Program-made: the position numbers and the translations under genes
Notes under the pieces: generated by a model
What the model was told of the DNA's origin: nothing
Seen by the model: only the letters and a program-made list of their open reading frames with translations
Databases searched by the model: none
Source: an uncultured Chloroflexia bacterium
Lineage (GTDB): Bacteria; Chloroflexota; Dehalococcoidia; DSTF01; WHTK01
Length of the DNA: 64,000 nucleotides
Direction of reading: 5' to 3'
Assembly (NCBI GenBank): GCA_963732945.1
Contig: CAVTBL010000004.1
Location: 206,894 to 270,893, forward strand
Shown here: positions 6,332 to 64,000 of the stretch, one piece after another
How positions within the stretch are numbered: position 1 is the stretch's first letter
How the letters are laid out: each line of letters opens with the position of its first letter

Positions 6332-6334
6332 CGG

Positions 6335-29217: not shown

Positions 29218-29333
29218 CAATTCGCCAATCGCAAGATTACGGTTAGCTGCGTGGCACCTCAGATGGCGCCTCGTTCACGCCGCCTCTCCTATCGTCGAAG
29301 CACAACCCGCTGTTCACAGCACGGAGGAGAGAT

Positions 29334-29927: not shown

Positions 29928-29957
29928 GACGCTGTCTATTTATTGACGATATGGCAT

Positions 29958-29997
29958 GTACGGATGATCATTAGTTATGCGACCGTATCATCCGTAC
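29958..29997. repeat. perfect 11-bp inverted repeat (GTACGGATGAT-N18-ATCATCCGTAC) in an AT-rich spacer
   Basis: read directly from sequence; lies 30 nt after the stop of the ferritin-like gene. Confidence 0.5.
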
Positions 29998-30364
29998 ACG
30001 CCAGACCAAGCTTTCTTGCTGCCCGCTCACTGGTGTCGGACAGCTCCCTGAAGATCGATCGCTCGATCAAGCTGCCGGTCTATGCTTCGGCTCTCGTTTC
30101 CGAAGTCTGGCTTGTCGACTTCACTGCCGAGGCCATCGAGATTACCGAGAACCGTCGGAGGGCCGCTATACGCAGACGCATGTCGTCGGTCGCGGTGAAA
30201 ACATCGCGCCGCTCGCCTTCTCCGGCGTAGCGATAGCTGTTAACGACATCCTCGGCTGAAGACCACCATCTGTCCTTAAACGGGCCGTTTGTCCGTTTGC
30301 CCGCTGGTCTTGTTGCCCTTAGGATCGCGTACACATAACGGGCGAATTCAGAGGCGGGGCTAAC

Positions 30365-32265: not shown

Positions 32266-32304
32266 AGACGTGAGCAACAAGCTTCAAGCGACAAGCTACA
32301 AGCA
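32266..32304. repeat. same heptamer family (ACAAGCT TCAAGCG ACAAGCT ACAAGCA) between ribBA and ribH
   Basis: shares GA(A/C)AAGCTACAAGC with the 3080-3110 element. Confidence 0.4.
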
Positions 32305-32346
32305 GTGCGAGCCTTGTTGCCTGTTGCCCGTTGCTGGTTGCCGGGA

Positions 32347-32814
32347 ATGATCGAAATACCGGAAGACCTCGACGGTGCGGACCTGCGCGTGGCGATTGCA
32401 GTGTCGCGGTTCAATACGCTGATTACGGAGCGACTGCTGGCCGGCGCGCTCGAGGGCTTGACGGCGCTCGGCGTCGACGTGTCGCGCGTCACGGTCGCGT
32501 GGGTGCCGGGCAGCTTCGAGCTGCCATTCGCGGCTCAGCGCTTCGCCGAGACGTCGCGCTACGACGCCGTTATCTGCCTTGGCTGCGTGATCAAGGGCGA
32601 GACCGACCACAACGAGTACATCAACCACGCGACCGCGACCGGCCTGCAGGAAGTCGGCGCGCGCACCGGCGTTCCGGCGATCTTCGGGGTCGTGACGGTG
32701 AACAGCCTGGAGCAGGCGCTGGCGCGCGCCGAAGAGGGCTCGACGAACAAGGGCTACGAATGCGCCGTTGCGGCTGTCACCATGGCGAACCTGAGCCGCA
32801 TCATCCCCGAGTAG
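32347..32814 (+). CDS. ribH: 6,7-dimethyl-8-ribityllumazine synthase
   Basis: lumazine synthase fold (RVAIAVSRFN...WVPGSFELP). ATG at 32347 preferred over the upstream start in the ORF track. Confidence 0.9.
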   Translation: MIEIPEDLDGADLRVAIAVSRFNTLITERLLAGALEGLTALGVDVSRVTVAWVPGSFELPFAAQRFAETSRYDAVICLGCVIKGETDHNEYINHATATGLQEVGARTGVPAIFGVVTVNSLEQALARAEEGSTNKGYECAVAAVTMANLSRIIPE

Positions 32815-35664: not shown

Positions 35665-36330
35665 ATGATAATGGCAGAAGCAATAGAGGGTGCCGCCCCC
35701 CGCGTCGTCTCTGGACGCTGGGTGAGCTTGCGGCGCGCTTGCGACATCCTGGGCGTCGATGAGTCGACGCTACGCCGTTGGGCCGACGGCGGCCGGCTGC
35801 GGGTTTACCGTACGCCCGGCGGTCACCGCCGCTTTGCCCTCAGCGACCTCGAGGGCATGGTGGCGGGCGAGAACCGCCGCGGCTCGGAAGAGGTAGAACG
35901 CATCGCCGTCGCCAAGATCCGGCGCCAGCTGCAGCGGGCGCGTCAGCAGGAGCACGGCTGGTACGTCAGCCTCTCGGAGTCGAACCGCGGCCGCCTGCGC
36001 GACCTCGGCCGTCGCCTGGTGGAAATGGCCGGCGAGTACATGGACAAGCGCACGCGTCACAGCGGGCTGCTCGACGAGGCGCTGGAGATGGGCGAAGCCT
36101 ACGGCCGCATCTTCGTCGAGGCCGGCATGCCGCTGCCGAGCGCGATCGGCGCCTACATCGGCTTCAGCAAGACGGTCGACGAGACGACGCGTCAGACCGC
36201 CCTGCGCGAGTCGATGCCGCTGGATGAGGCCCTGGCGGCCTACGGGCAGGTGCACGCGTTGGGTGACCAGGTGCTGCTCGGCATGACGGCTGCGTACGAG
36301 GCTCTCGCCGGCACAGCCGACGGCAGCTAG
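35665..36330 (+). CDS. MerR/excisionase-family HTH protein with uncharacterised helical C-terminal domain
   Basis: HTH_17-like (ILGVDESTLRRWADGGRLRVYRTPGGHRRF). Confidence 0.6.
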   Translation: MIMAEAIEGAAPRVVSGRWVSLRRACDILGVDESTLRRWADGGRLRVYRTPGGHRRFALSDLEGMVAGENRRGSEEVERIAVAKIRRQLQRARQQEHGWYVSLSESNRGRLRDLGRRLVEMAGEYMDKRTRHSGLLDEALEMGEAYGRIFVEAGMPLPSAIGAYIGFSKTVDETTRQTALRESMPLDEALAAYGQVHALGDQVLLGMTAAYEALAGTADGS

Positions 36331-36485: not shown

Positions 36486-36827
36486 TTGCCACAATCTGAA
36501 GACCACGAGGACTCCGGTCACAACGACAATGCTGCGTTGAGCGCCGATAATGACTCGAGGGAATTTATGAGCGAACGACAGAAACCGCGCCGCAGGCGCA
36601 ACGGATTCATGGACGGCCAGGATCAGGTCTTTTCGCTGAGCAGTATCTACCGCACCTCGATCCTGGGCAGCGATCGGTCGGGCGACATGGCGCGCCCCGG
36701 CCACGCTGAGGTCGACCCGATAGCATGGCCGGAGCCCGGCGAGGACCTCGACGACTCCGAGCTGAGCGACTACGAGCGCCGTCAGGCTATCGCGCGGGAG
36801 CGCTGGCGCCGCGAGGGCCGCGCCTGA
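36486..36827 (+). CDS. hypothetical acidic protein upstream of hemA
   Basis: 113-aa ORF ending 2 nt before hemA; low-complexity, weak. Confidence 0.3.
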   Translation: MPQSEDHEDSGHNDNAALSADNDSREFMSERQKPRRRRNGFMDGQDQVFSLSSIYRTSILGSDRSGDMARPGHAEVDPIAWPEPGEDLDDSELSDYERRQAIARERWRREGRA

Positions 36828-36829
36828 CA

Positions 36830-38068
36830 ATGCACGTCTCCGTTACGGGCGTCAGCCACCATGAGACGCCCGTTGAGCTGCGTGAGCGCTTCGCGTTCAA
36901 CGCCGAGCAGCTCGTCCCGGCCCTGAGCCGCCTCCCGGCCGAGCTCGGCGCCTCGATTCTCTCGACCTGCAACCGCACCGAGCTGTACATCGCCTCGGAG
37001 CGCAGCGTCGAGCTCGACGAAGCCGTCGCGGCGCTGGCGACGGCGCATGGCCAGCCTTCGCCCGAGGGCATCGCCTTCTACCACAAGGACGGTCCCGAGG
37101 CCGTGCAGCACCTGTTCCGCGTAGCCGCCGGCATCGAGTCGCTGGTGATCGGCGAGTCGGAAATCCTGGGGCAGGTGCGCGAGGCCTTTTCGGCCGCTAC
37201 GGCCGCGGGCAGCGGCAACGCCGTTCTGGCGCGCCTGTTCCATTCAGCCCTGCGCGTCGGACGTCGCGCCCGCAGCGAGACCGAGATCGGCGCGCACGGG
37301 CTCTCAGTCGCCGCGCTCGCGGTTAGCCTTTCGCGCCGGCTGCTGGGCGACCTGCGCCGCAAGACAGTGCTCGTGGTCGGCGCCGGCGAGGCGGGGCAAC
37401 GCTGTGCCGGCGCTCTGGTGCAGAACGGCGTCGGCCGCCTGCTGGTCACGACGCGTCGATCCGGCCTGGCCGAAGAGATCGCGCGCGAGCTCAACGGCGT
37501 CGCGATTCCCTACGCGGAGCTGAGCAGCGCACTCGCCGAAGCCGACGTGATCATCACCGCCACGGCCGCACCCGAGGCGATCATCAGCGCCGCCGACGTT
37601 GCGGCCGCGATGGCATCTCGTCCCGAGCGGCCGCTGCTCATCGTCGACATCGCCGTGCCGCGCGACGTCGATGCCGCCGCGCGCGACGTGGCCAACGTGC
37701 ACCTGTTCGACATCGACGACCTGGAGGCCGCGGCCGAGGCCAACCTCGAGGCGCGTCGGCGCGAGGTCGGGGCCGTCGAAGCCATCGTCCTCGACGAGTC
37801 GGCGCGGTTTCAGGCCTGGCTCGAAGCGCAGGGCGTCGCGCCGACCATCGCCACGCTGCGCCGGCGCGCCGAAGCGATTCGCGCCGCCGAGCTGCAGCGC
37901 ACGCTATCGCGCCTGCCAGACCTCGACGAGGCGGACCGCAAGCGCATCGAGGCCATGAGCGAGGCGATCGTCAAGCGTCTGCTGCACGAGCCCGTGACGC
38001 GCCTGCGCCAGTCCGGCACCGAGCGCCACGTCGAAGCCCTGCGCGATCTCTTTGGCCTCGACGACTGA
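36830..38068 (+). CDS. hemA: glutamyl-tRNA reductase
   Basis: HemA N-terminal catalytic Cys (STCNRTE), NADP-binding GAGEAG. Confidence 0.9.
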   Translation: MHVSVTGVSHHETPVELRERFAFNAEQLVPALSRLPAELGASILSTCNRTELYIASERSVELDEAVAALATAHGQPSPEGIAFYHKDGPEAVQHLFRVAAGIESLVIGESEILGQVREAFSAATAAGSGNAVLARLFHSALRVGRRARSETEIGAHGLSVAALAVSLSRRLLGDLRRKTVLVVGAGEAGQRCAGALVQNGVGRLLVTTRRSGLAEEIARELNGVAIPYAELSSALAEADVIITATAAPEAIISAADVAAAMASRPERPLLIVDIAVPRDVDAAARDVANVHLFDIDDLEAAAEANLEARRREVGAVEAIVLDESARFQAWLEAQGVAPTIATLRRRAEAIRAAELQRTLSRLPDLDEADRKRIEAMSEAIVKRLLHEPVTRLRQSGTERHVEALRDLFGLDD

Positions 38069-38125: not shown

Positions 38126-38995
38126 GTGGATGCTGAGATTCAGGCCGTTGCCTTCGACTGCTTCGGCACGCTGATCGATTTCAGCGACGAGGCGTTTGCC
38201 ACCGCTTACGGCGTCATCTGCGCCGAGCAGGGCGTCCCGATCGACGGGCAGACCTTTTACGACAAGTGGATGGAGGTCTGGCGACGCCTCGCCAACGCCG
38301 GAAGTTCCGCGACAGGCGCAGGGATCGAGTTCAAAGCTTCGAACGGCAACGGCGTCGAGGCGCTGGTCAACCAGCCGGCCGCCCTCAGCGAGGCCGAGCC
38401 GATGCCGCCGCATCCCGAGCACCACACGCCCTCGGCCGGACGCAACCGCTCGCTCGACGGACCGGTGCCCGAGTTCAGGACGTATCGCGAGGAGTGGACT
38501 GAGCACTTCGCAATCTGCTTCGAGGAGCTCGGCGTCGAGGCCGACGCCGCCGTGGCTCACGAGCGCCTGCGCGAGCTCCTGGCGCAGGGCAGCGCCTTCC
38601 CAGAATCGCGGCGCGTCGTCGAACGGGTCGGGAGGCGTCTGCAGACCGCGATGCTCTCGAACGCCGACGACGACTTCCTGCATCCCGTGCTCGGCCGCAA
38701 CGGGCTCGTCTTCCCGGTCATCGTCTCGTCCGAGTCGGCGCGCGTCTACAAGCCCCACGTCGCGATCTTCCGCACGCTGGCCGACGAACTTGGCTTGCTG
38801 CCGGAATCGATCCTCTACGTCGGCGACAGCCGCCTCGCCGACATCACCGGCGCCAAGAACGCCGGCCTGCGCGCGGCCTGGCTGAATCGGCGACGCAGCA
38901 TGAGCGAGTGGAGCGCCTCGGGGCGTAATCTCATCGAACCCGACTACGAAATCGAGACCTTAGACGCGCTTCTCGGTATCCTCGACATAGCATGA
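38126..38995 (+). CDS. HAD-superfamily hydrolase
   Basis: HAD motif [10 protein letters not shown] and C-terminal motifs (YVGDS...D); large cap insertion. Confidence 0.75.
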
Positions 38996-40278
38996 GTCGC
39001 GTAACCGCACGCTCCCACGCCATCTTCGAGGAGGCGCAGCGCTACCTCCCCGGCGGCGTCAACAGCCCAGTGCGCTCCTTCCGCGGCGTCGGCGGCGACC
39101 CCGTCGTCGTGGCGTCTGGCGCCGGGCCGCGCATCACCGACGTCGATGGCAACGCCTACATCGATTACTGCGGCTCCTGGGGCCCGCTGGTCCTCGGACA
39201 CGCGCACGCCGCCGTCGTCGAAGCCGTGAGCAGCGCCGCCAGCCGCGGTCTGACCTTCGGCGCCGCCACCGAGGCCGAGCTCGAGCTGGCGCGCCTGGTC
39301 TGCGAGGCCGTGCCGTCGATCGAGATGGTGCGCTGCGTCAGCTCCGGCACCGAGGCGACAATGTCGGCGCTCCGTCTGGCTCGCGCCTTCACCGGACGCA
39401 GCAAGATCGTCAAGTTCGAGGGCTGCTACCACGGCCACGCCGACGGGCTGCTGGTGCAGGCCGGCTCCGGCGTCGCGACCCTGTCGCTGCCCGATAGCGC
39501 CGGCGTGCCGCCCTCCTACGCCGCCGAGACGCTGGTCGCGCCCTACAACGACGTTGCGGCGATCGATGCGCTGTTCGAGCAGCGCCGCGACGAGATCGCC
39601 GCCGTGATCGTCGAGCCCGTCGCCGCCAACATGGGGGTCGTGCCGCCCGCACCGGGCTTCCTGCAGCACCTGCGCGATCTTTGCACCGCGTCCGGGGCGC
39701 TGCTGATCTTCGACGAGGTGATCACGGGCTTCCGGGTCGGTCTCGGCGGTTACCAGGCGTCGTGCGGCGTCCTGCCGGACATCACCTGCCTCGGCAAGGT
39801 GATCGGCGGCGGCATGCCGGTCGGTGCCTACGGCGGCCGCCGCGACATCATGCAGCTGATCGCGCCGCTGGGGCCCGTCTACCAGGCCGGTACGCTCTCG
39901 GGCAACCCGCTGGCCATGGCCGCAGGACTCGCGACGCTGCGGGAGCTGTCGCGCCCCGGCGTCTACGAAGCCCTCGAAGCAAAGGGCGCGCGCCTCGAGG
40001 CCGGCCTGCGCGCCGCGCTCAACCGCCACGAGGTCCCGGCGCAGGTCAACCGCGTCGGCTCGCTGATGACGCTGTTCTTCACGGACGCCCCGGTTACGGA
40101 CTACGCCAGCGCGCGCAAGTGCGACACCGAACGCTACGCTCGCTTCTTCCACGCCCTGCTCGACGCCGGCGTCTACTTCCCGCCGTCGCAGTTCGAGGCC
40201 GCCTTCGTCTCGCTGGCGCACAGCGACGCCGACATCGACGCGACAATCGATGCGGTGGACGCGGCGCTGTCTGCCTGA
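38992..40278 (+). CDS. hemL: glutamate-1-semialdehyde 2,1-aminomutase
   Basis: class III aminotransferase, HemL-like throughout. Confidence 0.9.
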
Positions 40279-51178: not shown

Positions 51179-53377
51179 ATGCGCACTAACAAGGCGGCGA
51201 GCCTGGTCGTCCTGCTTGTCTTTGCCTTGGCTGTTGGCGCGAAAACGCAGATGGTCTTCGGCTCCAGCAGCTTCGGTGGCGAGACCGGAGGCATTGGTGG
51301 CGGGTGTGGTACTGACTTCACAAGTAAGAGTATCCCGAATGTCCAAGCGCTAAGCTGGTCAGATTTCATCGGCTCGCCAGACGGCCTAGCTGGCGGCTCT
51401 GCGGCGATGTCGTTTGTTTGGACCTCTTCCCCAGGACGGCAACTCAAGTTAGACATGACTGCCACGGGAGCTGAAGGCTGCGGAGCCAACGCCGCTTACT
51501 CTGCAAATTTATTTGTCGACCCTGGCACGCAGGTTACACTGGCGGCCACCACTCAGAATGCTCATGTCAGGATCCTGCCGCTCCAAAATCAGGCGAATGT
51601 CGTCCAAGACGTGTGCCCAATTCCACAGTGCGACCACGAAAGCCTTACCCAGACCGTCACCTTGAGCGGCACCTACCGGCTTGAGGCCGTAGAAGCTCCG
51701 GGGTGGGACGAAACTGCCAGCGTGCACTTGGTCCTGTCCCTGGGGAACACCGCACCGCTTGTCTCCATTGGTGATGCCGTGGATTCTGAGGGCGACAGCG
51801 GAAGCAAGTTCTTCGCGTTCCCGGTCATCCTCTCCGCTCCCCTTTCAACAAGCGCCTCCGTCAGCTTCGGGACCCAGGACCTCACCGCTACTGTCGCCGA
51901 CAACGATTACAACGCCGCCTTTGGCAGCGTCAGCTTCGCACCCGGCGAAGTGTCGAAGGTAATCTCAATTGCTGTGATTGGAGACACGAAAAACGAAGCC
52001 AACGAGACTTTTCGCGTAATCCTAGGCGATCCGTCGGCTAATATTCTCATAGGCAGTTCAGCTGCCATGGGAACGATCATCAACGACGATGTCGCTGTCG
52101 ATTTCGACTGGACGGTGCCAGATCGCTTCGGGCTGGACCAGAATGGTGACCAGATCATCGATTACTACCCCCCGGACGGGCACCTGGTTATCTCGCCCGA
52201 CGGTTGGCGAGTAGACTTCACCTTCAGTGTGGGCGGAAGTTGTCCCAGTGGTCTAAGCTCGAAATGGACCGTGAATGGACTCGCCATCGCACCAAGCGAT
52301 CCTGAAATCCTGCTCAGCAATGCCGCGGCTTGTAAGTTTAGCTATCGCTTTCCGAGGGAAGATACGTTCCAAGTTAAGCTTGAGCTCACAGACAGCACCA
52401 ATGCGGTCGTAGGGCAGCAGCAGAAGGCGGTTATAGTCCAGGATTGGCTCATCGTCTCGATAGGCGATTCTGTGGCTTCCGGCGAAGGTAATCCCGACGC
52501 ACCAGGGCCGATCTGGGAGGACCGCCAGTGCCACCGTACATCCGCAGCCGGACCGGCCCAGGCGGCGATGAAAATCGAGCGCGCCGATCCTAAGACGTCT
52601 GTGACCTTCATACACCTTGCGTGCTCCGGCGCCTCGATAAACGAAGGTCTTCTCCGCCGTTACGTGGGCCAAGAACCAGGCAGGCCACTCTTGCCACAGG
52701 TACAAGCTATGGACTTGCTAGTTGGCAATCGGGAGGTCGATGCCGTTCTCATTTCGATCGGTGCCAACGATGTGGAGTTCAGCAATATCGTAAAGAATTG
52801 TTTCCTTCGTACGGACTGTAACGATGCTTCGAAGCCCAACTCAATGGCCGCCTTTTTTGACAGCAAATTGCCTACGCTTCCTGCTGCCTATGACGCATTG
52901 GGTTTAAAGCTCAGGTCTGGTCTGAGGCATCCACTGAAGCCTGGACGGACTTACATCACTGAATATTTCGATCCGACCAGGGACGAGTCCGGCGCTTTCT
53001 GCGATAACAAGATCCTGGAGGAGGCCTTCGACTTTCCCCGTCTGGGCATTACTGCGACAGAGGGACAATGGGCTTCCACTGAGATGCTCGTGCGTTTGAA
53101 CCAGACTGTGGCCGCGGCAGCATCGCGCAACGACTGGCACTTCGTTAACGGAATCTACGACGCATTCCGAACTCATGGCTACTGTGCGATTGACTCTCAG
53201 CGCTGGATCGTCCAGGCAACGGAATCGCTACGGAATCAGCACAACAAGGACGGCACAATACATCCCAATCGTCCTGGGCATGTTGAGTACGGAGCGCGCC
53301 TAACAGCGGCACTTACAGCGGACTTCTATGCCGGCGACGATTTCAGTCGGCCGCGAGCGCCCATCACCGGCCCGTAG
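51179..53377 (+). CDS. secreted Calx-beta domain / SGNH(GDSL) hydrolase protein
   Basis: signal peptide; Calx-beta consensus (VDSEGDSGSKFFAFPV...VSFGTQDLTATVADNDYNAAFGSVSFAPGE...IINDD); GDSL block IVSIGDSVASGEGN. Confidence 0.75.
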   Translation: MRTNKAASLVVLLVFALAVGAKTQMVFGSSSFGGETGGIGGGCGTDFTSKSIPNVQALSWSDFIGSPDGLAGGSAAMSFVWTSSPGRQLKLDMTATGAEGCGANAAYSANLFVDPGTQVTLAATTQNAHVRILPLQNQANVVQDVCPIPQCDHESLTQTVTLSGTYRLEAVEAPGWDETASVHLVLSLGNTAPLVSIGDAVDSEGDSGSKFFAFPVILSAPLSTSASVSFGTQDLTATVADNDYNAAFGSVSFAPGEVSKVISIAVIGDTKNEANETFRVILGDPSANILIGSSAAMGTIINDDVAVDFDWTVPDRFGLDQNGDQIIDYYPPDGHLVISPDGWRVDFTFSVGGSCPSGLSSKWTVNGLAIAPSDPEILLSNAAACKFSYRFPREDTFQVKLELTDSTNAVVGQQQKAVIVQDWLIVSIGDSVASGEGNPDAPGPIWEDRQCHRTSAAGPAQAAMKIERADPKTSVTFIHLACSGASINEGLLRRYVGQEPGRPLLPQVQAMDLLVGNREVDAVLISIGANDVEFSNIVKNCFLRTDCNDASKPNSMAAFFDSKLPTLPAAYDALGLKLRSGLRHPLKPGRTYITEYFDPTRDESGAFCDNKILEEAFDFPRLGITATEGQWASTEMLVRLNQTVAAAASRNDWHFVNGIYDAFRTHGYCAIDSQRWIVQATESLRNQHNKDGTIHPNRPGHVEYGARLTAALTADFYAGDDFSRPRAPITGP

Positions 53378-53649: not shown

Positions 53650-55110
53650 CTATTCGGACTCGTCCAGGGGCGCTGCGGCCGCGATTCTACGGAGCATTCC
53701 GCTGAAAATCACGGAATGCAGCGGGAATAGACCGAACCAGTAGGCGAGGCCGGCCACGCCCACGGGATCGAAGATCGCGGTCTGCCTGAGGCTGCAGCGA
53801 TTCGCGCCCTGGGGTTCGATCTCGAACTGGAGCCAGGCTCGGCCAGGCAACCGCATCTCGGCGGCGAAGCGGACGAGCCGTGCTGGTTCGATGGCCTCGA
53901 CGCGCCAGAAGTCGACCGTGTCGCCGACGGCGAGGTGTCGAGGATCGCGGCGTCCGCGGCGCATGCCGGCACCGCCGACAGCGAGGTCGAGCAGGCCTCG
54001 GAGGCGCCAGAGCCAGTTACCGTAGTACCAACCGGTGTCGCCACCGATACGCTCGACGACGCCGAACGCGGCATCGGCGGAGCATTCAATCGGGGCGACG
54101 CGCGAGTCCACCAGGCGTGAACCGAAAGCATCGCCGCCCCAGCCGCGAGTTACGCCGGCCGATGCGAGAGCGTCCGACCAGCGCGTCTGGGCGAATTCCC
54201 GATCTTCGTTTCTCAGGGCGCGCGCTACGGCTTCGCGGACGCCCATGGGATGCACGCCGAAGAGCTCCTGTGCTCGTGCGTCGTTTGCTACCGTCTCGTG
54301 CGGCAGGCTCTCGATCAGGATGCGACCAACGCGGGCGTAGAGCGGCGTCACGAGGCCCAACCAGAGGCTGGAGAGCCGTGGCGTGAGCACGGGCACAGGG
54401 ATCATCAGCCGTCGCAGGCCTCGCTGGTTGCCGTACTCCAGCATGAGGTCCTTGAAGGAGACCCGCTCCGCTCCGCCGATCTCGAATATCTCGGAGCCGG
54501 TGATCGGCACGTCGATGGCTCTGCGCAGGTAGGCGATGACGTCCTCGATGGCGATTGGTTGAGTACGAATGCGGACCCAGCGCGGCATCACCATGATCGG
54601 CAGCCGGTCGATAAGCGAGCGGATCATCTCGAAAGAGAGGCTGCCGGATCCCAGAATGACCGAAGCGCGAAACTCGATAGTCGGCACGCCGGAGTCGCGG
54701 AAGATGCGACCGACTTCCTGCCGGCTGGCGAGATGCGGCGAGAGGTTGTCGCCGGTACCGAGACCACCGAGATAAATGAGCCTGCTTACGCCGGCCGCCT
54801 TCGCTGCAGCGGCGAAGTTGGACGCGACTTCGCGATCGCGAGTCACGAAGTCAGCGGTCGCGGCCATGGAGTGAACCAGGTAATAGGCGTGCGTGACCCC
54901 CACCATCGCGGCTGCGAGGTCGTCGGACTTCATGACGTCGCCTTTCACAACCTCGGTCGATGGGCTGAGATTGGTGTGCAGGCGCTTCGGATCGCGCACC
55001 AGGCAGCGAACGCGGCAGCCATCGTCCTGAAGTGCCTGCAACAGGCGCCCGCCGACGTAGCCGGTGGCGCCGGTTAGCAGGACAAGAGGCTGAGACGTTT
55101 CGGGCTGCAT
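53650..55110 (-). CDS. YbjT-like NAD(P)-binding (NmrA/SDR-like) protein with C-terminal DUF2867
   Basis: Rossmann motif LLTGATGYVGG. ATG at 55110 overlaps the heliorhodopsin stop (ATGA). Confidence 0.75.
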   Translation of the reverse strand: MQPETSQPLVLLTGATGYVGGRLLQALQDDGCRVRCLVRDPKRLHTNLSPSTEVVKGDVMKSDDLAAAMVGVTHAYYLVHSMAATADFVTRDREVASNFAAAAKAAGVSRLIYLGGLGTGDNLSPHLASRQEVGRIFRDSGVPTIEFRASVILGSGSLSFEMIRSLIDRLPIMVMPRWVRIRTQPIAIEDVIAYLRRAIDVPITGSEIFEIGGAERVSFKDLMLEYGNQRGLRRLMIPVPVLTPRLSSLWLGLVTPLYARVGRILIESLPHETVANDARAQELFGVHPMGVREAVARALRNEDREFAQTRWSDALASAGVTRGWGGDAFGSRLVDSRVAPIECSADAAFGVVERIGGDTGWYYGNWLWRLRGLLDLAVGGAGMRRGRRDPRHLAVGDTVDFWRVEAIEPARLVRFAAEMRLPGRAWLQFEIEPQGANRCSLRQTAIFDPVGVAGLAYWFGLFPLHSVIFSGMLRRIAAAAPLDESE

Positions 55111-55895
55111 CACTTCATCAAGGTGGGGAAGAAGACCTGCCACGCCAGCGCCGACTTCGCGGTGAGGCTGAGAAGAATGTATACCGATTCGCCGAAGACA
55201 TAATTGCGCCAGGGCCCGATGCGGCGGTACTGCAGCCACATGTTCAGCGCGAAGACGTTGAAGAATAGGAACAGCGAGAAGAAGATGCCGTACACGAACC
55301 CGGGCGGGTTGGCGGACGAGCCGGGGCTGACGAAGTAGACACCGATGGCGATCCAGGGAACCGCGCCGGCGATGCAGCCGAGCCAGAAAGGTAGCAGGCT
55401 CCCGGAGCCCGGCCTGGCGTAGTGCTCCTGAACCAGGCCGAAGAAGATCATCGATGCGTTGACACCGAAGAGCGCGATCAGGGCCGCGACATCGCCGATG
55501 CCGGTGAGCATGGCGATAAGCACGATCATCAGCGAGGCGCTGAGCGAGTATTCGATCCAGCGCGCGTCGTTGCGCTGACGCTGCAGGTTACGCGTGTACC
55601 AGCCGAACACCCCCGGCAGAACGAGGGTGAAGTGAGCCACCGCCGATATGAAGACGAACGCGGCGACCGCGGGTCCGATAGGGAGGTCGAACAGGTGGCG
55701 CAGGGTCGGCGGTTCACTGCCCGGCGCGCCCTGCATGAAAGTGGCGTTTACCGGCAGCGAGAAACCGTTCGAGAGCGTGAGAATCAGCACTCCCTGCGCC
55801 GCGTGCAGCACGCCCATCGCCAGGTTGTACCAGCGCAGGCGTCGAAACGTCGCGCTCTGCGCTGGGTTGTTGGTGTCCGAATCTGGCTGCTTCAC
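55110..55895 (-). CDS. heliorhodopsin
   Basis: 7-TM protein with blocks matching heliorhodopsin 48C12 (RWIEYSLSASLMIVLIA, FGVNASMIFFG, LLPFWLGCIAGAVPWI, PGFVYGIFFSLFLFFN) and the Schiff-base lysine in TM7 (LSLTAKSALAWQ). Confidence 0.85.
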   Translation of the reverse strand: MKQPDSDTNNPAQSATFRRLRWYNLAMGVLHAAQGVLILTLSNGFSLPVNATFMQGAPGSEPPTLRHLFDLPIGPAVAAFVFISAVAHFTLVLPGVFGWYTRNLQRQRNDARWIEYSLSASLMIVLIAMLTGIGDVAALIALFGVNASMIFFGLVQEHYARPGSGSLLPFWLGCIAGAVPWIAIGVYFVSPGSSANPPGFVYGIFFSLFLFFNVFALNMWLQYRRIGPWRNYVFGESVYILLSLTAKSALAWQVFFPTLMK

Positions 55896-55985
55896 GGCTT
55901 CAATCCTCGCTGGCTGCCGATGCAGCCGGTGGGGGCAGAGGAAGACAATTTAGTCCTCCTCTGCCCCGCTCTTTGTTACTACCAG

Positions 55986-56255
55986 TTACCTGCTGGTCAT
56001 CTGCGACTGACCACCGCGGTGACTCTGTGCGCTCGGGAGCTTCATCTGCGCCATCGCCAGACCCGCGAGGCCGACGAAGGCTGAAGCGCCGACGAGGATG
56101 TAAACGATACGCGTAATGGTCGAGGTCTCGCCGAAGTCCTTGCCAAAGATGGCGGCGACGAGGTCGTACTCGAAGAGTCCGACAAGGCCCCAGTTGATGC
56201 CGCCAACGGCGAGAAGTATCAGCGATAGCCAGACGATTGGGTTGATGTTGTTCAT
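55986..56255 (-). CDS. DUF378-family small membrane protein
   Basis: GINWGLVGLFEYDLV motif, two TM helices. Confidence 0.65.
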   Translation of the reverse strand: MNNINPIVWLSLILLAVGGINWGLVGLFEYDLVAAIFGKDFGETSTITRIVYILVGASAFVGLAGLAMAQMKLPSAQSHRGGQSQMTSR

Positions 56256-56314
56256 TGCTGTTTCTCCTTTTTAGTTCGTAGGTTGCGTACGCGATGCCCG
56301 GATCGCGTGTCTGA

Positions 56315-57160
56315 TTAGGCTCGAGCTCGTGAGCGAGCGAAGCGAGCGGCGAACAGCGTGCTCAGCACGACGGCCGTGGCAATCGCGGCCCAGGACACAT
56401 AGGAGGTGCCGTCATCGGCCGATTTGTCAGCCAGGAGGCCGGCGTCGCCGGTGTTTGGCGGCATCATGACCGCGGCCGCGGGGGTGTAGCTGAGAGGCAC
56501 GACGGACAGAGACGGGCTGCCATTGGCCAGACCAGCGGCGACGAAGGTGTACACCGTGCCGGCCTTTAGCTGAACGCCATCGAGGGGCAGAACGACGGTG
56601 CTGGTGCCGGCGGCTCGCACCTCGAGGTTGTAGGTGCCGGCGTCGACCGGCAGCGGGCCCTTTTGCTCACCGAACGCCAGGTTCGAGACGAGGACGGGTC
56701 CGTCCTTGACGGCGATGTCCACGGCCGGCGCGTCCGGCGAAGCGTGGATCACCTGGACGTGGGCCTTGCCCGCGCCGGGCGCAGCGTTGTTGTCGACGAA
56801 CACCTTGGCCTGGATCTGCGCCAGCTTGTTAACGGCGGCAACCGTGTAATCGGTGTCGGCTTTCAGGTCGGCGGTCGCGGACAGGACGGGGGTCGAGGCT
56901 GCGGCGGCGCCGGCAGGCCTTACGTCAAAGGTGTAGGTGCCGGCCGGGACAGCCAGGTAGTCGGACGCCGACTTGAAGGCAACATTGCTGAGAACTTTGG
57001 TGCCGTTAGCGTAGACGTCGACCGCCGGTGCGTCGGGTGAGGCGTGCAAGACGCGCACGCGCGCTTCACCGGCAGCCTGCGCGCCGGCGAACGCCCAGGT
57101 AGCGAGCATGACAGCAGCGAGAGTTGCAAGGATGAATCTGAACACGGTAAGTCCTTTCAC
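56315..57160 (-). CDS. DUF4397 repeat surface protein with signal peptide and C-terminal membrane anchor
   Basis: two DUF4397-like repeats (VRVLHASPDAPAVDVYANG / VQVIHASPDAPAVDIAVKDG); signal peptide. C-terminal PPNTG-like motif, hydrophobic segment and RSRARA tail. AAGGA SD favours GTG at 57135. Confidence 0.7.
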   Translation of the reverse strand: MKGLTVFRFILATLAAVMLATWAFAGAQAAGEARVRVLHASPDAPAVDVYANGTKVLSNVAFKSASDYLAVPAGTYTFDVRPAGAAAASTPVLSATADLKADTDYTVAAVNKLAQIQAKVFVDNNAAPGAGKAHVQVIHASPDAPAVDIAVKDGPVLVSNLAFGEQKGPLPVDAGTYNLEVRAAGTSTVVLPLDGVQLKAGTVYTFVAAGLANGSPSLSVVPLSYTPAAAVMMPPNTGDAGLLADKSADDGTSYVSWAAIATAVVLSTLFAARFARSRARA

Positions 57161-57258
57161 TAGGTCGGTACGCTCCGAGGACTGCTAATTCACTGCGATG
57201 CCTGCATCACATCAATGGCCTCCATCTGCGTCACATCTTGGTCAAGCAACGCAAAGCC

Positions 57259-57288
57259 ATTGTGCAAACCATGTGCACAACTTGTCAA
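57259..57288 (-). promoter_or_regulatory. candidate promoter and operator of the heliorhodopsin operon: -35 TTGACA, 18-nt spacer containing palindrome TTGTGCA-N7-TGCACAA, -10 CACAAT
   Basis: read on the minus strand; MerR-like operator geometry; divergent from the B12-binding MerR regulator gene. Confidence 0.4.
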
Positions 57289-57329
57289 GGTCTGTTGACT
57301 AAGTTTTGCAAAAGCTAGAGAATCGAGCG

Positions 57330-58205
57330 GTGAACTACACGGTCAAGGCTGCTGCGCGTGCAACCGGCGTGTCCGAGAGCAGGCTTCGTACCTGGGAACG
57401 CCGCTATGGCATACCCAAGCCCGCGCGGGCGGCTTCAGGCCGGCGCCTGTACGACGACGACGATCTCGCCGTCATCCGGCGCATGGCGTCTCTGGTGGGT
57501 GCCGGCGTGTCGGCTGCAGAGGCCGCGGAAGCAGCGCGTTTCGGAGCGGCTGAAACGCCTCCCCTCTCAGAGAAGCGCACCGAGCACCCTCTGATCGCGG
57601 CGCTTGTCGCCGCCGCAGAGTCGTTCGACGAGGCGGCTCTGCTCGCGGCGCTGAAAAGCTGCACTGACGCTTGGGGCTGGGCTCAGGCCCTGGACGAAGT
57701 GGTCTTCCCGGCGCTGAAGCAGATTGGCAGGTCATGGGAAGAGGCGGCAATTCCTCCGGCCAAGGAGCACTTCGCCTCGGAGCTGGTGAAGCGAGAGCTC
57801 GAGGCGGCATTGCATGATCTCGGTCCGTCCGTGGACCGCTCGCCACGAATCATGCTTGCGTGTCCGGAGTCAGAGCGTCATGACCTGGGACTGATGGCAC
57901 TGGCGCTGCTGCTCAGACTGGCGCACGTCAACGTCGTCTATCTAGGCGGCGATGTGCCCACGTCCGATCTCATTGCCGCAAATGACGAGCTGCGGCCAGA
58001 CGCGATCTGCCTGTCGGCAACCAGCGCTAACGGGCTTGCTTCTCTCGTGCGCGCATCCAGGACGCTGGTATCGGCAAGAGCCGTGCGGCTGTTCATCGGT
58101 GGACCGGCGGTTAACGGCACGGGCCCCGTCGCGGCTGGTCTCCCGCTGCCCGAATCCCTCGCATCTGCATCGAGGTTAATCGTCGAAAACACTCGCCCGA
58201 AGTAG
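57330..58205 (+). CDS. MerR-family regulator with C-terminal cobalamin (B12)-binding domain (CarH/LitR-like)
   Basis: MerR HTH (YTVKAAARATGVSESRLRTWERRYGI); B12-binding Rossmann with E-x-H-x-x-G (ESERHDLGLMALALLL...VVYLGGDVP). GTG at 57330 preferred over TTG at 57306. Confidence 0.8.
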   Translation: MNYTVKAAARATGVSESRLRTWERRYGIPKPARAASGRRLYDDDDLAVIRRMASLVGAGVSAAEAAEAARFGAAETPPLSEKRTEHPLIAALVAAAESFDEAALLAALKSCTDAWGWAQALDEVVFPALKQIGRSWEEAAIPPAKEHFASELVKRELEAALHDLGPSVDRSPRIMLACPESERHDLGLMALALLLRLAHVNVVYLGGDVPTSDLIAANDELRPDAICLSATSANGLASLVRASRTLVSARAVRLFIGGPAVNGTGPVAAGLPLPESLASASRLIVENTRPK

Positions 58206-58399: not shown

Positions 58400-59998
58400 G
58401 TGAAGACGATGCTGTCGAAGGACTCTCCTTTCGTATACGTCGTCACGATCGCTGCCACCGCTCTGCTAACGGCCGTTCTGGCGCCGTTTCGAACGGAGAT
58501 AGGCCTGCTCAATGAAGGCCTGCTGTTCCTCCTCCTGACGCTGCTCGTGGCGTCGGTCTGGGGCCGAGGGCCGGGGCTGTTCGCGGCCGTAATCACGAAC
58601 CTCGCGTTCAACTTCTTCTTCATTGACCCGCTCTACCGGTTCACGGTACAGGAGCCGCGCAACACGGTCGCGCTGGGCGTGTTCCTGGTCGTGTCCATCG
58701 TCGGTAGCTCGTTGCTTTCGGCAGCGCGTGACGCCGCGTCTCGGGCGCGACTGCGGCAGGCCGAGACGGAGATCGCTTTGGCATTGAGCCGCGAGATGAG
58801 CGGCGAGATCGACCCCGGTGAGGCGCTAAACCGGCTCTGCCTTGAAGCGGTTCGCGACTTTGCGGCACCCGGCGCCGCGGTGCTCAAGAGCTCGGACGGC
58901 CGCTGGGCAGTGCTGGCGCATGCCGGGAGCGTAACTTCGGGCCGTGCGCCGAGCCCAGAGGAGCGCTCGGTGGCCGATCGCGTGGCGACCAGCGGCGAGG
59001 TCGAAGGCCTCGGACGCACCGGCCTCAGCAAGACGCGCGCGCGCGTCGTCTTCCCTCGCGGTCGCGAGGCAGCCTTCGGCGCGGCTCGCAGCGAGACCCT
59101 GGTGCCGTTGAAGGTCGGCGACCAGATTCTGGGGATACTGAGACTCGACGGCCCAATTGGCGATACGCCGTTCAGCGAACACCCAGAAGGGCTGCTGAGC
59201 GCCATCGCTGGCGAAGCGGCGCTCGCGGTTCACCGCTCGGAGCTTGCGCAGGCCGCTGCTCACGCCGAGGCGCTGCGCGAGGCAGACGAACTCAAGAGTG
59301 CGCTGCTCAATGCCGTCTCCCACGACCTGCGCACGCCCCTGGCCTCGATCATCGCCTCCGCCGGCAGCCTGCAGCAAACTGACGTGAAGTGGACCGACGA
59401 AGAGCGCCTCGGTTTCGCAGATGCCATCGAGAGCGAGGCGCAGCGCCTCAACCGGCTGGTCGGCAACTTGCTCGACCTTTCGCGTATCGAGTCCGGTAGC
59501 CTGCGACCCGAGAAGGGCTGGTACGATTTGGGCGCGTTGGTCGACGAAGTTGTGGGCCGGCTCAAACCGATGACGGCGAGGCACAAGGTCTCTTTCGAAA
59601 TGCCGCCCGAGCTACCCCCTGTCGCCCTTGATTACATCGAGATCGACGAAGTGCTGACTAATCTCATCGAGAATGCCACCAAATACACTCCCGAGGGAAC
59701 GGAGATAGCCATAAGCGTGCGTCCTGTGGGAGATGAGGTCGTGGTCGAAGTAGGCGATCGCGGCGGCGGCATTCCGCCCGACGCCTTGCAGAGCGTTTTC
59801 GAGCCGTTCTATCGCGTTGGAGGGTCTAAGGTGCGTGGCACCGGTCTCGGCCTCGCGGTGGCAAAGGGCCTTGTGCAGGCGCACGGGGGACGCATCTGGG
59901 CCCAGAACCGTCTCGACGGTGGTGCGATCTTCGCCTTCTCGTTGCCCGTGAAAGCAAGCGATGGCTCCTTACTGCCGGTGCCAGAGCGCGCTACATGA
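58400..59998 (+). CDS. kdpD: sensor histidine kinase KdpD-like (TM/DUF4118 + GAF + HisKA + HATPase, lacking the N-terminal KdpD/Usp domains)
   Basis: H-box SHDLRTPL, N/G boxes; 532 aa, starts at the membrane segment. Confidence 0.85.
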   Translation: MKTMLSKDSPFVYVVTIAATALLTAVLAPFRTEIGLLNEGLLFLLLTLLVASVWGRGPGLFAAVITNLAFNFFFIDPLYRFTVQEPRNTVALGVFLVVSIVGSSLLSAARDAASRARLRQAETEIALALSREMSGEIDPGEALNRLCLEAVRDFAAPGAAVLKSSDGRWAVLAHAGSVTSGRAPSPEERSVADRVATSGEVEGLGRTGLSKTRARVVFPRGREAAFGAARSETLVPLKVGDQILGILRLDGPIGDTPFSEHPEGLLSAIAGEAALAVHRSELAQAAAHAEALREADELKSALLNAVSHDLRTPLASIIASAGSLQQTDVKWTDEERLGFADAIESEAQRLNRLVGNLLDLSRIESGSLRPEKGWYDLGALVDEVVGRLKPMTARHKVSFEMPPELPPVALDYIEIDEVLTNLIENATKYTPEGTEIAISVRPVGDEVVVEVGDRGGGIPPDALQSVFEPFYRVGGSKVRGTGLGLAVAKGLVQAHGGRIWAQNRLDGGAIFAFSLPVKASDGSLLPVPERAT

Positions 59999-60696
59999 CG
60001 CGCGCTACCGGGCCGCGCGTGCTGGTCGTCGACGATGAGCCGGCGATTCGGCGGGCGCTGGGCACGAATCTCAACCGCCACGGCTTCAATGTCGAAATGG
60101 CAGAGTCAGGCCAGGAAGCGCTCGACCTGTTCGCGTCTTTCCGGCCCGACCTCGTTATCCTCGACCTCAGCCTCCCGGACTTCGACGGCAGCCACGTCAT
60201 CGAAAGGATTCGCGAACGCTCGAGCACGCCGATCATCATCCTCTCGGTACGGGGTGCGGAACGCGACAAGGTCGGCGCCCTGGACATGGGGGCTGACGAC
60301 TACCTGACGAAGCCGTTCAGCGTGAACGAGCTCCTGGCGAGAGTGAGAGTTGCCCTGCGTCACGTTGCCCAGCCTACCCATTCAGGCGTCTTCCGCGCAG
60401 GCGACCTCGAGGTCGATCTGGAGCATCGCCGCGTCCGTAGGGCTGCGAAGGAAGTCGACCTCTCTCCCACAGAATACGACCTGCTGAAGGTCCTCATCGC
60501 CCATCCCGATCGGGTTCTGACGCACGCCATGCTGGTGCACGACGTCTGGGGCCCGGAGTACGGTAACGAGCCCCACTACCTTCACGTCTACGTCGCACGC
60601 CTGCGCAAGAAGCTCGAAGCCGACCCGCAACGGCCTCGACTGATCGTCACCGAACCGGGTGTTGGCTACCGGCTCGTGGCGGACGAGGCAACGTGA
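59995..60696 (+). CDS. kdpE: OmpR-family response regulator KdpE-like
   Basis: receiver domain with LVVDDE, plus a winged-helix domain; ATGA overlap with kdpD. Confidence 0.85.
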   Translation: MTRATGPRVLVVDDEPAIRRALGTNLNRHGFNVEMAESGQEALDLFASFRPDLVILDLSLPDFDGSHVIERIRERSSTPIIILSVRGAERDKVGALDMGADDYLTKPFSVNELLARVRVALRHVAQPTHSGVFRAGDLEVDLEHRRVRRAAKEVDLSPTEYDLLKVLIAHPDRVLTHAMLVHDVWGPEYGNEPHYLHVYVARLRKKLEADPQRPRLIVTEPGVGYRLVADEAT

Positions 60697-62483: not shown

Positions 62484-64000
62484 ATGGAAGTCAGCGGTAT
62501 AGTCCACATTCTGTTTTACTTTCTCGTAATCCTGGCACTGACCAAACCTCTCGGTGCCTACATGGCGATTGTGTTCGAGGGCGAAGGTAGCATCTCGAAG
62601 CGTGTGTTCGCACCCGTTGAGAACGTGATCTTCAAGGTTTTCATGGTCGACGCCAGGAAGGAAATGGACTGGAAGCGCTACGCGTTTGCTGTCGTCTTCT
62701 TCAGCGTCATCGGCATCCTCATCGTCTATGGGCTGCAGAGGCTGCAGGGTAGCCTGCCGCTCAACCCGCAGAATCTTCCAGGGACGACATCTGACCTGGG
62801 ATTCAGTACCGCGTCCAGCTTCACGTCCAACACTAACTGGCAGGCTTACGGAGGCGAGACGACGCTGAGCTACCTCACGCAGATGCTCGGTCTGACGGTG
62901 CAGAACTTCGTCTCTGCCTCAGTGGGCATCGTTGTCGTGATCGTCCTAATCCGTGGCTTCTCGCGTCGCTCGACCAGCGACCTCGGGAACTTCTGGGCCG
63001 ACATCGTCCGCTGCGTGCTCTGGATCATGATGCCCCTGTCCATCGTTTTGACGATTTTCCTCGTTTCGCAGGGCGTGATTCAGAACTTCAGCTCCTATAA
63101 GGAGGTCACGACCCTCGAAGGCGTCAAGCAGGTCCTGGCGATGGGACCGGCTGCGTCGCAGATAGCGATCAAGCAGCTGGGCACGAACGGCGGCGGGTTC
63201 TTCAACTCCAACTCGGCCGTTCCGTTCGAAAACCCAACGCCGTTCACGAACTTCCTCGAGTCAATCTCGATCTTCCTGATACCGGCAGGCCTGACGTACA
63301 CGTTCGGCAAGATGGTGAAGGATACGCGCCAGGGTTGGGCCGTCTTCGCTGCCATGAGCATTCTGTTTCTCGCCGGCATCTTCGTCGTCTACCCGGCAGA
63401 ACAACACGGCAATCCGATCATGGCAAACCTGGGAGTAGATAACTCCTACCAGACCGGTAACCTGGCCAGCTCCGGCGGCAACATGGAGGGCAAGGAGGTC
63501 CGCTTCGGCATTGCGGATTCCGCGATCTGGGCGACCGCAACCACGGACGCCTCCAACGGCTCCGTTAACTCGATGCACGACAGCTACATGCCGCTTGGCG
63601 GCCTCGTCGCATTGTTCAACATGCATTTGGGAGAGGTCGTTTTCGGTGGGACCGGCTCAGGCCTCTATACGATGCTCGGCTTCGCGATCATCGCCGTCTT
63701 CGTTGCCGGGCTGATGATCGGCAGAACGCCGGAGTATTTGGGCAAGAAAATCGGCCCGTACGAAATGAAGATGTCGATCTTCATGTTCCTGGTTCCTTCA
63801 GCGGCAGTCCTGCTCTTAACGGCACTCGGGACCACTACCGGCCTTGGCAAGGCGGGGCCGCTAAACGCCGGGCCTCATGGCTACTCGGAAATTCTTTACG
63901 CCTTCACATCAGCGGGCGAGAACAACGGGTCGGCATTCGCCGGTCTCACCGCTAACACTCCGTTCTACAACACCGCGCAGGGTGTCGAGATGCTGCTCGT
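62484..64000 (+). CDS. kdpA: K+-transporting ATPase subunit A (3' end beyond window)
   Basis: AGGAG SD; KdpA motifs (LGEVVFGGTGSGLY, IGRTPEYLGKKI, NNGSAFAGL); the open frame runs to the window edge. Confidence 0.9.
   Translation, partial: MEVSGIVHILFYFLVILALTKPLGAYMAIVFEGEGSISKRVFAPVENVIFKVFMVDARKEMDWKRYAFAVVFFSVIGILIVYGLQRLQGSLPLNPQNLPGTTSDLGFSTASSFTSNTNWQAYGGETTLSYLTQMLGLTVQNFVSASVGIVVVIVLIRGFSRRSTSDLGNFWADIVRCVLWIMMPLSIVLTIFLVSQGVIQNFSSYKEVTTLEGVKQVLAMGPAASQIAIKQLGTNGGGFFNSNSAVPFENPTPFTNFLESISIFLIPAGLTYTFGKMVKDTRQGWAVFAAMSILFLAGIFVVYPAEQHGNPIMANLGVDNSYQTGNLASSGGNMEGKEVRFGIADSAIWATATTDASNGSVNSMHDSYMPLGGLVALFNMHLGEVVFGGTGSGLYTMLGFAIIAVFVAGLMIGRTPEYLGKKIGPYEMKMSIFMFLVPSAAVLLLTALGTTTGLGKAGPLNAGPHGYSEILYAFTSAGENNGSAFAGLTANTPFYNTAQGVEMLL

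Follow-up and report, generated by a model that had tools for sequence, protein, structure and literature searches.

Class I regulators of the CarH/LitR type, described in Thermus thermophilus, Bacillus megaterium (LitR) and Myxococcus xanthus, associate a MerR DNA-binding domain (DBD) with a B12-binding_2 and a B12-binding domain. Their operators consist of tandem 11-bp direct repeats (consensus nAnnTnnACAn), three in Thermus and four in B. megaterium, and extend over ~55 bp in Myxococcus; the CarH tetramer binds these repeats and occludes a sigma-A promoter (PMC8156234). We report here on a Chloroflexota locus, positions 53650-58205 of the 64,000-nt stretch of DNA that was analysed (hereafter the window), where a regulator with the same three domains is divergent from a group of genes that includes a heliorhodopsin (HeR).

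The physiological role of HeRs is still open, and their association with a B12 regulator offers a testable lead. Few HeR partners have been demonstrated. Photolyase is one of them. Others are glutamine synthetase (PMC9529153) and an ABC transporter (PMC11109279), and in both cases HeR is co-operonic with a soluble protein, as it is here. Cho et al. 2024 (PMC11109279) reported, by annotation name, that MerR family regulators, SDR family oxidoreductases and alpha/beta hydrolases are frequent neighbours in HeR operons, and treated them as possible interaction partners. Cobalamin, CarH and LitR are unmentioned in that work, which contains no operator and no DUF2867/SRPBCC analysis, and which states that the MerR and SDR groups do not share operons; in contrast, the window brings both together, as do the fasciclin-HeR-HTH_17-B12-hydrolase-SDR/DUF2867 operons described below. 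MerR and B12 are unmentioned in Bulzu et al. 2021 (PMC8612252) as well, and our literature search found no paper linking heliorhodopsin with B12/cobalamin, CarH, LitR or DUF2867. An earlier reading of the window, made from its letters alone (the sequence-only reading), had called the arrangement undescribed. This holds in part: since Cho et al. list these neighbours, the adjacency of HeR with MerR and SDR genes is on record by name, but the B12/CarH identity was not recognised there. What appears to be new is this B12-photoreceptor identity, the operators, the occurrence of two architectures, and the description of the partner as an atypical SDR joined to an SRPBCC domain.

Pfam profiles recognised MerR_1 (E 5e-15), MerR (E 5e-9), B12-binding (E 3e-12) and B12-binding_2 (E 2e-7) in the regulator, which has a MerR winged-helix DBD, a 4-helix bundle and a Rossmann B12 domain. 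In CarH, cobalt has its lower axial ligand in the His of the ERH motif, and the Wx9EH motif covers the adenosyl group and brings about head-to-tail dimerisation. The closest solved structures are those of Thermus thermophilus CarH/LitR (5C8D and 3WHP, E 1e-28, full-length alignment). Over the Wx9EH motif, WEEAAIPPAKEH of the regulator is aligned to WHRGEIGVAEEH of Thermus CarH, the His of its ERH motif falls on the Thermus CarH His, and its DBD aligns with those of CarH and CarA (5C8D, 2JML). The B12 motif is canonical as well, ERHDLG-x41-SAT-x25-GG for ExHxxG-x41-SxT-x25-GG, the general form in this class being ExHxxG-x41-SxT/V-x22-27-GG. Photoreceptor motifs have been defined for CarH-type B12 proteins (PMC8156234, PMC11796333), and Wx9EH is intact in the window regulator and in 23 of the 24 other HeR-linked B12 proteins. 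Among the four SignatureFinder elements of B12 photoreceptors, GxxW, EH, GxxH and GxxxP (PMC11796333), only GxxH is changed in the window regulator, where it is replaced by SERH (SxxH); the same position reads EERH and DERH in the regulators of two related loci, L002 and L003. We conclude that the CarH/LitR architecture proposed in the sequence-only reading is correct and that the regulator is, by its domains and motifs, a genuine CarH/LitR class I-type B12 protein. It would be expected to bind B12, to respond to light and to act as a repressor. No Rfam family reached its gathering threshold anywhere in the 64-kb window, so that no cobalamin riboswitch was detected.

Regulators with 57-71% identity are encoded in six loci, which we call type A. 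Besides the window, these are two loci of GTDB genomes (L002, L003) and three of JGI metagenomes (L082, L083, L084). In 6/6 of them the regulator is divergent from a DUF4397 gene, which is the constant cargo, and the invariant first target gene, of this regulator subfamily. The spacer of the window contains, as the sequence-only reading had claimed, the perfect palindrome TTGTGCA-N7-TGCACAA (57260-57280), as well as TTGACA-18 nt-CACAAT (minus strand, 57288..57259). Chance alone would place a perfect 7-bp inverted repeat in 9-13% of such spacers, so the dyad by itself is not significant; significance comes from conservation and from an 11-bp periodicity. The 75 nt that extend from the palindrome to the regulator start codon can be aligned without any indel across the six loci, and they contain five tandem 11-bp repeats, an array that includes both the palindrome and a near-palindrome pointed out earlier next to it. 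The repeat geometry is kept in 6/6 loci, whereas the dyad itself is degraded in L082 and L083. Over the 30 repeat units of the six loci, T4 is found in 30, G5 in 24, A7 in 28 and A9 in 27. We had at first read the operator as repeats of TGTnnA, the reverse complement of TnnACA (three of them at 11-bp spacing occur once in the 64 kb, for 0 expected); the six-locus comparison then gave T4, G5, (C6), A7 and A9, on the regulator strand. A position weight matrix (PWM) built from the 11-bp repeats of these six training loci yielded array scores of 33-47 in them, with 39-42 recorded for the five-repeat operator, whereas shuffled windows reached 11.4 at most. The PWM also matched upstream of MerR-B12 genes that were not used for training, with scores of 22.5 in L014 and 22.0 in L085 and L086, two loci of candidate division KSB1, and found no second array in the 64-kb window.

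The array lies on two promoter-like sites (Table 1). A promoter consensus scan of 5.2 kb returned three sites, and only the two divergent promoters sit upstream of genes. Repeat 1 overlaps the operon -10, and the operon -35 is inside repeat 3 (TGTCAA), a position conserved in 6/6 loci; repeat 4 holds the regulator -35, and repeat 5 occupies the spacer of the regulator promoter. Equivalent regulator -10 elements are present in the six loci, each followed 6 bases 3' by the start codon. This means that the regulator mRNA is most likely leaderless, with a predicted start at GTG 57330 rather than TTG 57306, and the divergent spacer, previously given as 145 bp, has to be corrected to 169 bp. The idea of a classic MerR operator placed between -35 and -10 has to be given up: the conserved element is 55 bp long, 11-bp-periodic and extends across both divergent promoters, and the operon spacer is of 18 nt, where a classic MerR activator has a single dyad confined to a spacer of 19-20 bp and activates by DNA distortion. 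Since the array is conserved and the dyad degraded in L082 and L083, we consider the dyad as part of a larger CarH-type repressor operator. To judge from its layout, the operator follows the CarH repressor design, unlike a classic MerR spacer-dyad activator, and its conservation over both promoters agrees with the earlier proposal that the regulator is wired to the operon. On the minus strand, the predicted operon leader (57200-57258) contains two more units at 11-bp spacing (TGACCAAGATG TGACGCAGATG), and the leaders of L002, L003 and L082 also contain repeat-like arrays; all these may be additional regulator sites.

Table 1. Features of the locus, in coordinates of the window
Feature	Positions	Strand	Description	Pfam or consensus match
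SDR/DUF2867 gene	53650-55110	-	SDR/NmrA-like (NAD_binding_10) + DUF2867, 486 aa	DUF2867 E 9e-33; NAD_binding_10 E 8e-20
HeR gene	55110-55895	-	heliorhodopsin, 261 aa	PF18761 E 1e-100
Intercistronic hairpin	55932-55967	-	15-bp perfect stem, 6-nt loop, without U-tract	
DUF378 gene	55986-56255	-	small membrane protein, 89 aa	E 2e-18
DUF4397 gene	56315-57160	-	DUF4397 x2 secreted/anchored protein, 281 aa; operon gene 1	E 1.5e-57
Predicted operon promoter	57259-57288	-	-35 TTGACA (57288..57283), 18-nt spacer, -10 CACAAT (57264..57259)	10/12
Predicted operator	57260-57314		five tandem 11-bp repeats, consensus TnnTGCAnAnn	
Repeats 1 to 5	57260-70, 57271-81, 57282-92, 57293-303, 57304-14		units of the operator	
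Predicted regulator promoter	57295-57323	+	-35 TTGACT (57295-57300), 17-nt spacer, -10 GAGAAT (57318-57323)	9/12
Regulator gene	57330-58205	+	CarH/LitR class I-type, 291 aa from the predicted start GTG 57330; longest open reading frame from TTG 57306	

Compared to the class I systems, the locus has in common the Wx9EH and ExHxxG...SxT...GG motifs, a regulator gene that adjoins its target operon, with autoregulation predicted here, and a large operator whose tandem 11-bp repeats run over promoter elements of sigma-A type. The Thermus CarH gene is presumably arranged likewise, divergent from crtB. The present locus differs by its cargo, which is DUF4397, DUF378, HeR and an atypical SDR/SRPBCC protein instead of carotenoid genes, by the number and core of the repeats (five, with TGCAnA compared to nAnnTnnACAn), by SxxH for GxxH, by the predicted leaderless mRNA of the regulator and by its Chloroflexota host. 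The reading that we prefer, and in which our confidence is somewhat better than even, is that of a CarH-type light switch dependent on adenosylcobalamin (AdoCbl), with a cargo that includes a HeR cassette instead of carotenoid genes. It builds on the domains and motifs of the regulator, on the conserved periodic operator and on the conserved synteny, and its mechanism is modelled on CarH of Thermus and Bacillus. In darkness, the regulator with its AdoCbl would oligomerise and occupy the 55-bp five-repeat operator. Both hexamers of the operon promoter would then be covered, as would the -35 and the spacer of the regulator promoter, leaving the two promoters blocked. UV, blue or green light would photolyse the Co-C bond, the oligomer would dissociate and both promoters would fire. 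The transcript would yield DUF4397 and DUF378 and, provided that a hairpin located downstream of DUF378 is read through, the translationally coupled HeR and SDR/SRPBCC proteins.

The five domain calls made earlier (HeR, B12-binding, DUF4397, DUF378 and DUF2867) were all confirmed by Pfam profile search. Gene content downstream of DUF4397 varies among type-A loci. The window operon comprises DUF4397, DUF378, HeR and SDR/DUF2867; in L083, DUF4397, DUF378 and a HeR 85% identical to that of the window are followed by the contig end, and in L084, which has no HeR, DUF4397 and DUF378 are followed by a hairpin and a convergent gene. In L082, SDR/DUF2867 lies directly 3' of the regulator gene. In L002 and L003, the operon is made of DUF4397, an SDR (Epimerase + DUF1731), SRPBCC and HeR, on one strand, with gaps of 6-34 bp in L003 and 35-191 bp in L002. 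Thus HeR belongs to a DUF4397 operon in the window, L083, L002 and L003. DUF378 comes after DUF4397 in L083 and L084, and in L014 it is itself the gene that diverges from a MerR-B12 gene. Some 1 kb beyond the 3' end of the L002 HeR, on the opposite strand (7824-8165, minus), an open reading frame (ORF) looks by eye like a photolyase N-terminus, and a 473-aa ORF convergent with HeR in L003 is its possible counterpart. As for the DUF4397 protein of the window, reading by eye indicated a signal-peptide-like N-terminus, a hydrophobic C-terminus and a basic tail. Its C-terminus (56315-56460) displays MPPNTGDAG, a hydrophobic stretch and RFARSRARA, an arrangement like that of sortase-type sorting signals or C-terminal anchors; LPRAGDGG is found in the L084 protein at the position matching MPPNTGDAG. 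A sequence search of the PDB gave no meaningful match for DUF4397, and a literature search returned no functional information for DUF4397, DUF378, DUF2867 or YbjT.

The heliorhodopsin call stands: in addition to the PF18761 match, the protein matched the solved heliorhodopsins 9LJJ and 48C12 (6SU3) with an E value of 4e-76. The Lys of LSLTAKSALAWQ was aligned to the Lys of LSLVAKSALAWQ in 9LJJ, and the Glu of RWIEYS with the same residue of the solved HeR; as in 48C12, we take these residues to be the retinal Schiff-base Lys in transmembrane helix 7 and the counterion in transmembrane helix 3. The overlap of the SDR start with the HeR stop was also verified, albeit not as the 'ATGA' junction reported: the actual letters are GTGATG, where TGA and ATG share 1 nt (4 nt if the start is GTG 55113). 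Such an overlap of 1 or 4 nt, with HeR immediately upstream, was found in 6/6 relatives having at least 70% SDR identity. L001, L088 (P0011), L094 (P0002), L095 (P0012) and the contig carrying P0008 are examples where the flanks are unrelated. In more distant loci the adjacency is kept and the order changed, with SDR upstream of HeR in L007, L010 and L049, and downstream in L005, L009 and L028. The pairing of HeR with SDR/DUF2867, already proposed in the sequence-only reading, is strongly conserved and is the best-conserved feature of the locus. To judge from this synteny, the two genes form a separate, tightly conserved cassette. On the P0008 contig (JGI 3300056388, genes 4428-6974), the cassette overlaps the next gene downstream, Pyr_excise, which encodes a pyrimidine-dimer DNA glycosylase and is another UV-repair neighbour.

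The second protein of the cassette is an atypical SDR. Its YxxxK motif is replaced by HLxSR (H126-L-x-S129-R130), which is invariant in 47 homologues, while GxxGxxG is kept, with G14, G17, G20 and G21 invariant and two nearby arginines also kept. Among fold matches, NDUFA9, a non-catalytic subunit of complex I, ranked first and sugar-nucleotide epimerases second, NmrA/HSCARG-type proteins coming lower. Like E. coli YbjT, NDUFA9 (the 39-kDa complex I subunit) and NmrA/HSCARG, it has a glycine-rich Rossmann NAD(P) domain without YxxxK. Homologues are named 'YbjT (DUF2867 family)' in JGI and the two-domain architecture of YbjT is matched; here the protein is translationally coupled to a photoreceptor. 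A fold search on the predicted model gave the DUF2867 domain an SRPBCC/START helix-grip fold, a likeness seen by structure only, since hhalign alignments of DUF2867 with the SRPBCC proteins of the loci gave no signal (probability 0.2%). The separate SDR and SRPBCC genes located beside HeR in L002 and L003 are an analogous domain pair. A role as retinal/retinol redox enzyme had been suggested earlier. With HLxSR in place of YxxxK, an NDUFA9-like fold and an SRPBCC/START DUF2867 domain, such a retinal dehydrogenase role is unsupported, and the family is abundant in diderm phyla that lack HeR. Our reading of the available sequences is that SDR/DUF2867 would bind NADP(H) and a hydrophobic ligand, would belong to light or photo-oxidative regulons, and would be a standing HeR partner in Chloroflexota. 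The cassette most likely consists of a photoreceptor and a soluble protein binding both of these, and the two proteins may interact.

To see HeR neighbourhoods more broadly, the 80 best HeR loci of species-representative genomes were surveyed, with a 6-kb range for genes encoding a helix-turn-helix (HTH) and a B12 domain. An HTH-B12 gene was detected by tblastn in 28 of the 80 loci, and B12 regulators of this sort go with roughly 35-40% of related HeR genes. By clustering, HTH-B12 regulators were the most frequent neighbour family (24 loci), followed by fasciclin (19), SDR/DUF2867 (16), alpha/beta-hydrolase (10), SRPBCC (5) and photolyase-like proteins (5, recognised by eye). In the majority of the HTH-B12 loci, from Chloroflexota and Acidimicrobiia, the design differs from type A: fasciclin, a hairpin, HeR and an HTH_17-B12 gene follow one another. 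The latter overlaps HeR by 1-4 nt in most loci, and alpha/beta-hydrolase, then SDR/DUF2867, often come next. One fragment aside, the HTH_17-B12 proteins have Wx9EH and all four SignatureFinder elements. The promoter of this second design, TTGACA-N7/8-ATTTAGTnCTAAAT, is conserved across both phyla and has a palindrome over its -10, which is likely the operator of the in-operon regulator. The 12-mer TTTAGTNCTAAA occurs once per locus in 27 loci (among them L043, L044, L048, L052, L056, L057 at 5209-5220, L060, L061, L070, L073 and L080), and lies upstream of HeR in all but L071, either directly or ~0.7-1.2 kb off, before the preceding gene. Two unrelated DBDs and two operator designs thus couple a B12 photoreceptor module to HeR, which argues for a functional link. 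In L057 (~5880-5930), the interval that separates the fasciclin stop from the HeR start contains a conserved strong hairpin, GAGGGTGGGGCC-N15-GGCCCCACCCTC, which is found at the same position in L066, L068, L070, L073 and L080; it parallels the hairpin of the window and may serve in attenuation, stabilisation or processing.

Several observations weigh against the preferred reading. The regulator departs from the SignatureFinder set at one element in four (SxxH for GxxH, with E or D there in L002/L003), and the B12 binding and light response of the regulator are predicted from motifs. The repeat consensus shares only 3 of the 4 core bases with that of Thermus (T, A and A of TnnACA), and the spacing of the second near-palindrome is N6, not N7. 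As to neighbourhoods, B12 regulators recur (28/80 loci, and 27 loci for the second operator), but the closest HeR-SDR relatives (L001, L088, L094, L095 and the P0008 contig) have no MerR-B12 gene within 6-8 kb, nor was a PWM match found in L001; the regulator is therefore an add-on and not a constant partner of HeR. The main uncertainty lies in the passage of transcription from the regulated promoter through the hairpin into HeR. This hairpin, whose 15-bp stem separates DUF378 from HeR, has a minimum free energy of -49.3 kcal/mol (110-nt region, z -4.4), and analogous hairpins, likewise without U-tract, are found 3' of DUF378 in L083, before HeR, and in L084, where the operon ends without HeR. 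HeR may accordingly get little or no transcription from the regulated promoter, and its light control would require read-through. The four genes taken earlier as one operon do follow one another on the same strand, but their single transcript has to be qualified. At the extreme, the regulator would control DUF4397-DUF378 only, the hairpin being an efficient terminator and HeR-SDR/DUF2867 an independent adjacent unit, as the occurrence of the cassette alone, in unrelated neighbourhoods, in five close relatives would also suggest. We hold this to be possible but unlikely: the hairpin has no U-tract, ~36 nt separate it from the HeR start, and the consensus scan found no promoter-like site in this interval or in DUF378. 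Moreover, L083 keeps the order DUF378-hairpin-HeR with a Shine-Dalgarno sequence directly 3' of the hairpin, DUF4397-SDR-SRPBCC-HeR are co-directional in L002 and L003, and in the second design the regulator gene sits downstream of both hairpin and HeR, which means read-through there unless an internal promoter was not seen. We conclude that the hairpin is probably a partial terminator or an mRNA-stabilising element, and that transcription likely reads through it into HeR.

The mode of action of the regulator could also differ from that of CarH. An 18-nt operon spacer, longer than optimal and crossed by a perfect dyad, would speak for a classic MerR activator, with a dimer on the dyad remodelling the promoter upon a change in B12 or light. 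Such an activator is most improbable here, given the chance frequency of the dyad and its decay in L082 and L083 where the repeats persist, the 55-bp extent of the 11-bp-periodic element, which reaches over the regulator promoter, and the fact that the characterised class I CarH/LitR proteins are dark-state repressors, acting as tetramers on tandem direct repeats. Another view is that the regulator senses cobalamin supply or redox, the operon being unrelated to light apart from HeR; the change at the GxxH position in the window, L002 and L003 would fit, and the CarA fold can function without B12. The intact Wx9EH motif of the window regulator and of nearly all other HeR-linked B12 proteins, together with cargo and neighbours related to light (HeR, a photolyase-like ORF in L002 and possibly in L003, the photolyase-related DPRP in KSB1), make this very unlikely. 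The status of SDR/DUF2867 is more evenly balanced. It might not be a physical partner of HeR, but a general photo-oxidative or lipid-stress protein merely co-expressed with it, a view to which we give a substantial chance, if somewhat short of even. The family has >8000 homologues, with 62-67% identity in KSB1 and Acidobacteriota, which lack HeR, and it is found in other company, with a CarH gene and a photolyase-related gene, with TspO, or with DUF1295, acyltransferase and DegV. For a partnership speak the HeR-SDR overlap kept in 6/6 relatives despite unrelated flanks, an adjacency that outlasts changes of gene order (L007, L010 and L049 compared to L005, L009 and L028), and the separate SDR and SRPBCC genes that take its place beside HeR in L002 and L003.

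These other contexts are the following. In the HeR-less KSB1 loci L085 (3023-9585) and L086, a MerR-B12 gene is divergent from DPRP, SDR/DUF2867 (with a 4-nt overlap), adh_short and amino oxidase genes, and an 11-bp-repeat array is intergenic. L085 resembles the MerR/LitR-adjacent light-induced cluster of Pseudomonas, where a short-chain dehydrogenase, an FAD oxidoreductase and a photolyase are induced by light beside a class II LitR regulator; this LitR differs in having no Rossmann B12 domain and acting via a LOV protein, and its clusters contain no rhodopsin (PMC9758184). SDR/DUF2867 comes directly after TspO in L087 (Acidobacteriota), L092 and L093, and heads a cluster with DUF1295, acyltransferase and DegV in L090 and L091, contexts that point to a porphyrin- or lipid-related role.

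Coming back to the CarH-type switch, no neighbour of this HeR clade is more frequent, in species-representative genomes, than a B12 photoreceptor-regulator; it occurs in two independent architectures, each with a conserved operator, and these HeRs are therefore probably made only in light. The cargo of CarH-type switches reaches well beyond carotenogenesis, and the tightest HeR partner, with its NDUFA9-like SDR and SRPBCC pocket, is a concrete candidate effector. More speculatively, and we consider it distinctly doubtful, a large clade of Chloroflexota and Actinomycetota may possess a two-photoreceptor circuit with HeR as its sensor: the B12 photoreceptor, CarH-type or HTH_17-B12, would gate transcription, and the new HeR would then control, by light-dependent contact, its partner, a non-catalytic SDR that binds NADP(H) and is fused to or paired with SRPBCC, altering the state of membrane or envelope together with light-induced surface proteins (DUF4397 or fasciclin). 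The SRPBCC pocket would hold e. g. a retinoid, carotenoid, quinone or lipid. If true, this would give these HeRs a main physiological role. The operator and the regulator also represent compact light-switch parts from Chloroflexota, which are candidate optogenetic tools.

Outside the locus, no crt, blh or photolyase gene was recognised among the ORFs of the window, which were inspected by eye, with Pfam searches limited to 15 proteins, hence not exhaustively. Directly downstream of the CarH-like gene, a histidine kinase gene (DUF4118 + GAF + HisKA + HATPase) has a 4-nt overlap with a response-regulator-like gene (58400-60696); by eye the pair is KdpD/KdpE-like, and the ORF 62484-63998 KdpA-like. 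A large secreted Calx-beta + GDSL-lipase protein is encoded at 51179-53377 (plus strand), convergent with the SDR/DUF2867 gene. A run of ORFs at 28087-32814 resembles by eye a riboflavin operon (ribD, ribE, ribBA, ribH); no FMN riboswitch was found there, no Rfam family attaining its gathering score in the 64 kb. GC content at third codon positions is 0.62-0.71 for genes located at ~42-53 kb, versus 0.8-0.9 elsewhere in the window. Finally, a second HTH_17/MerR-like protein of 221 aa, having no recognised C-terminal domain, is encoded at 35665-36330 (plus strand), just upstream of hemA (36725-38068) and hemL (38992-40278).

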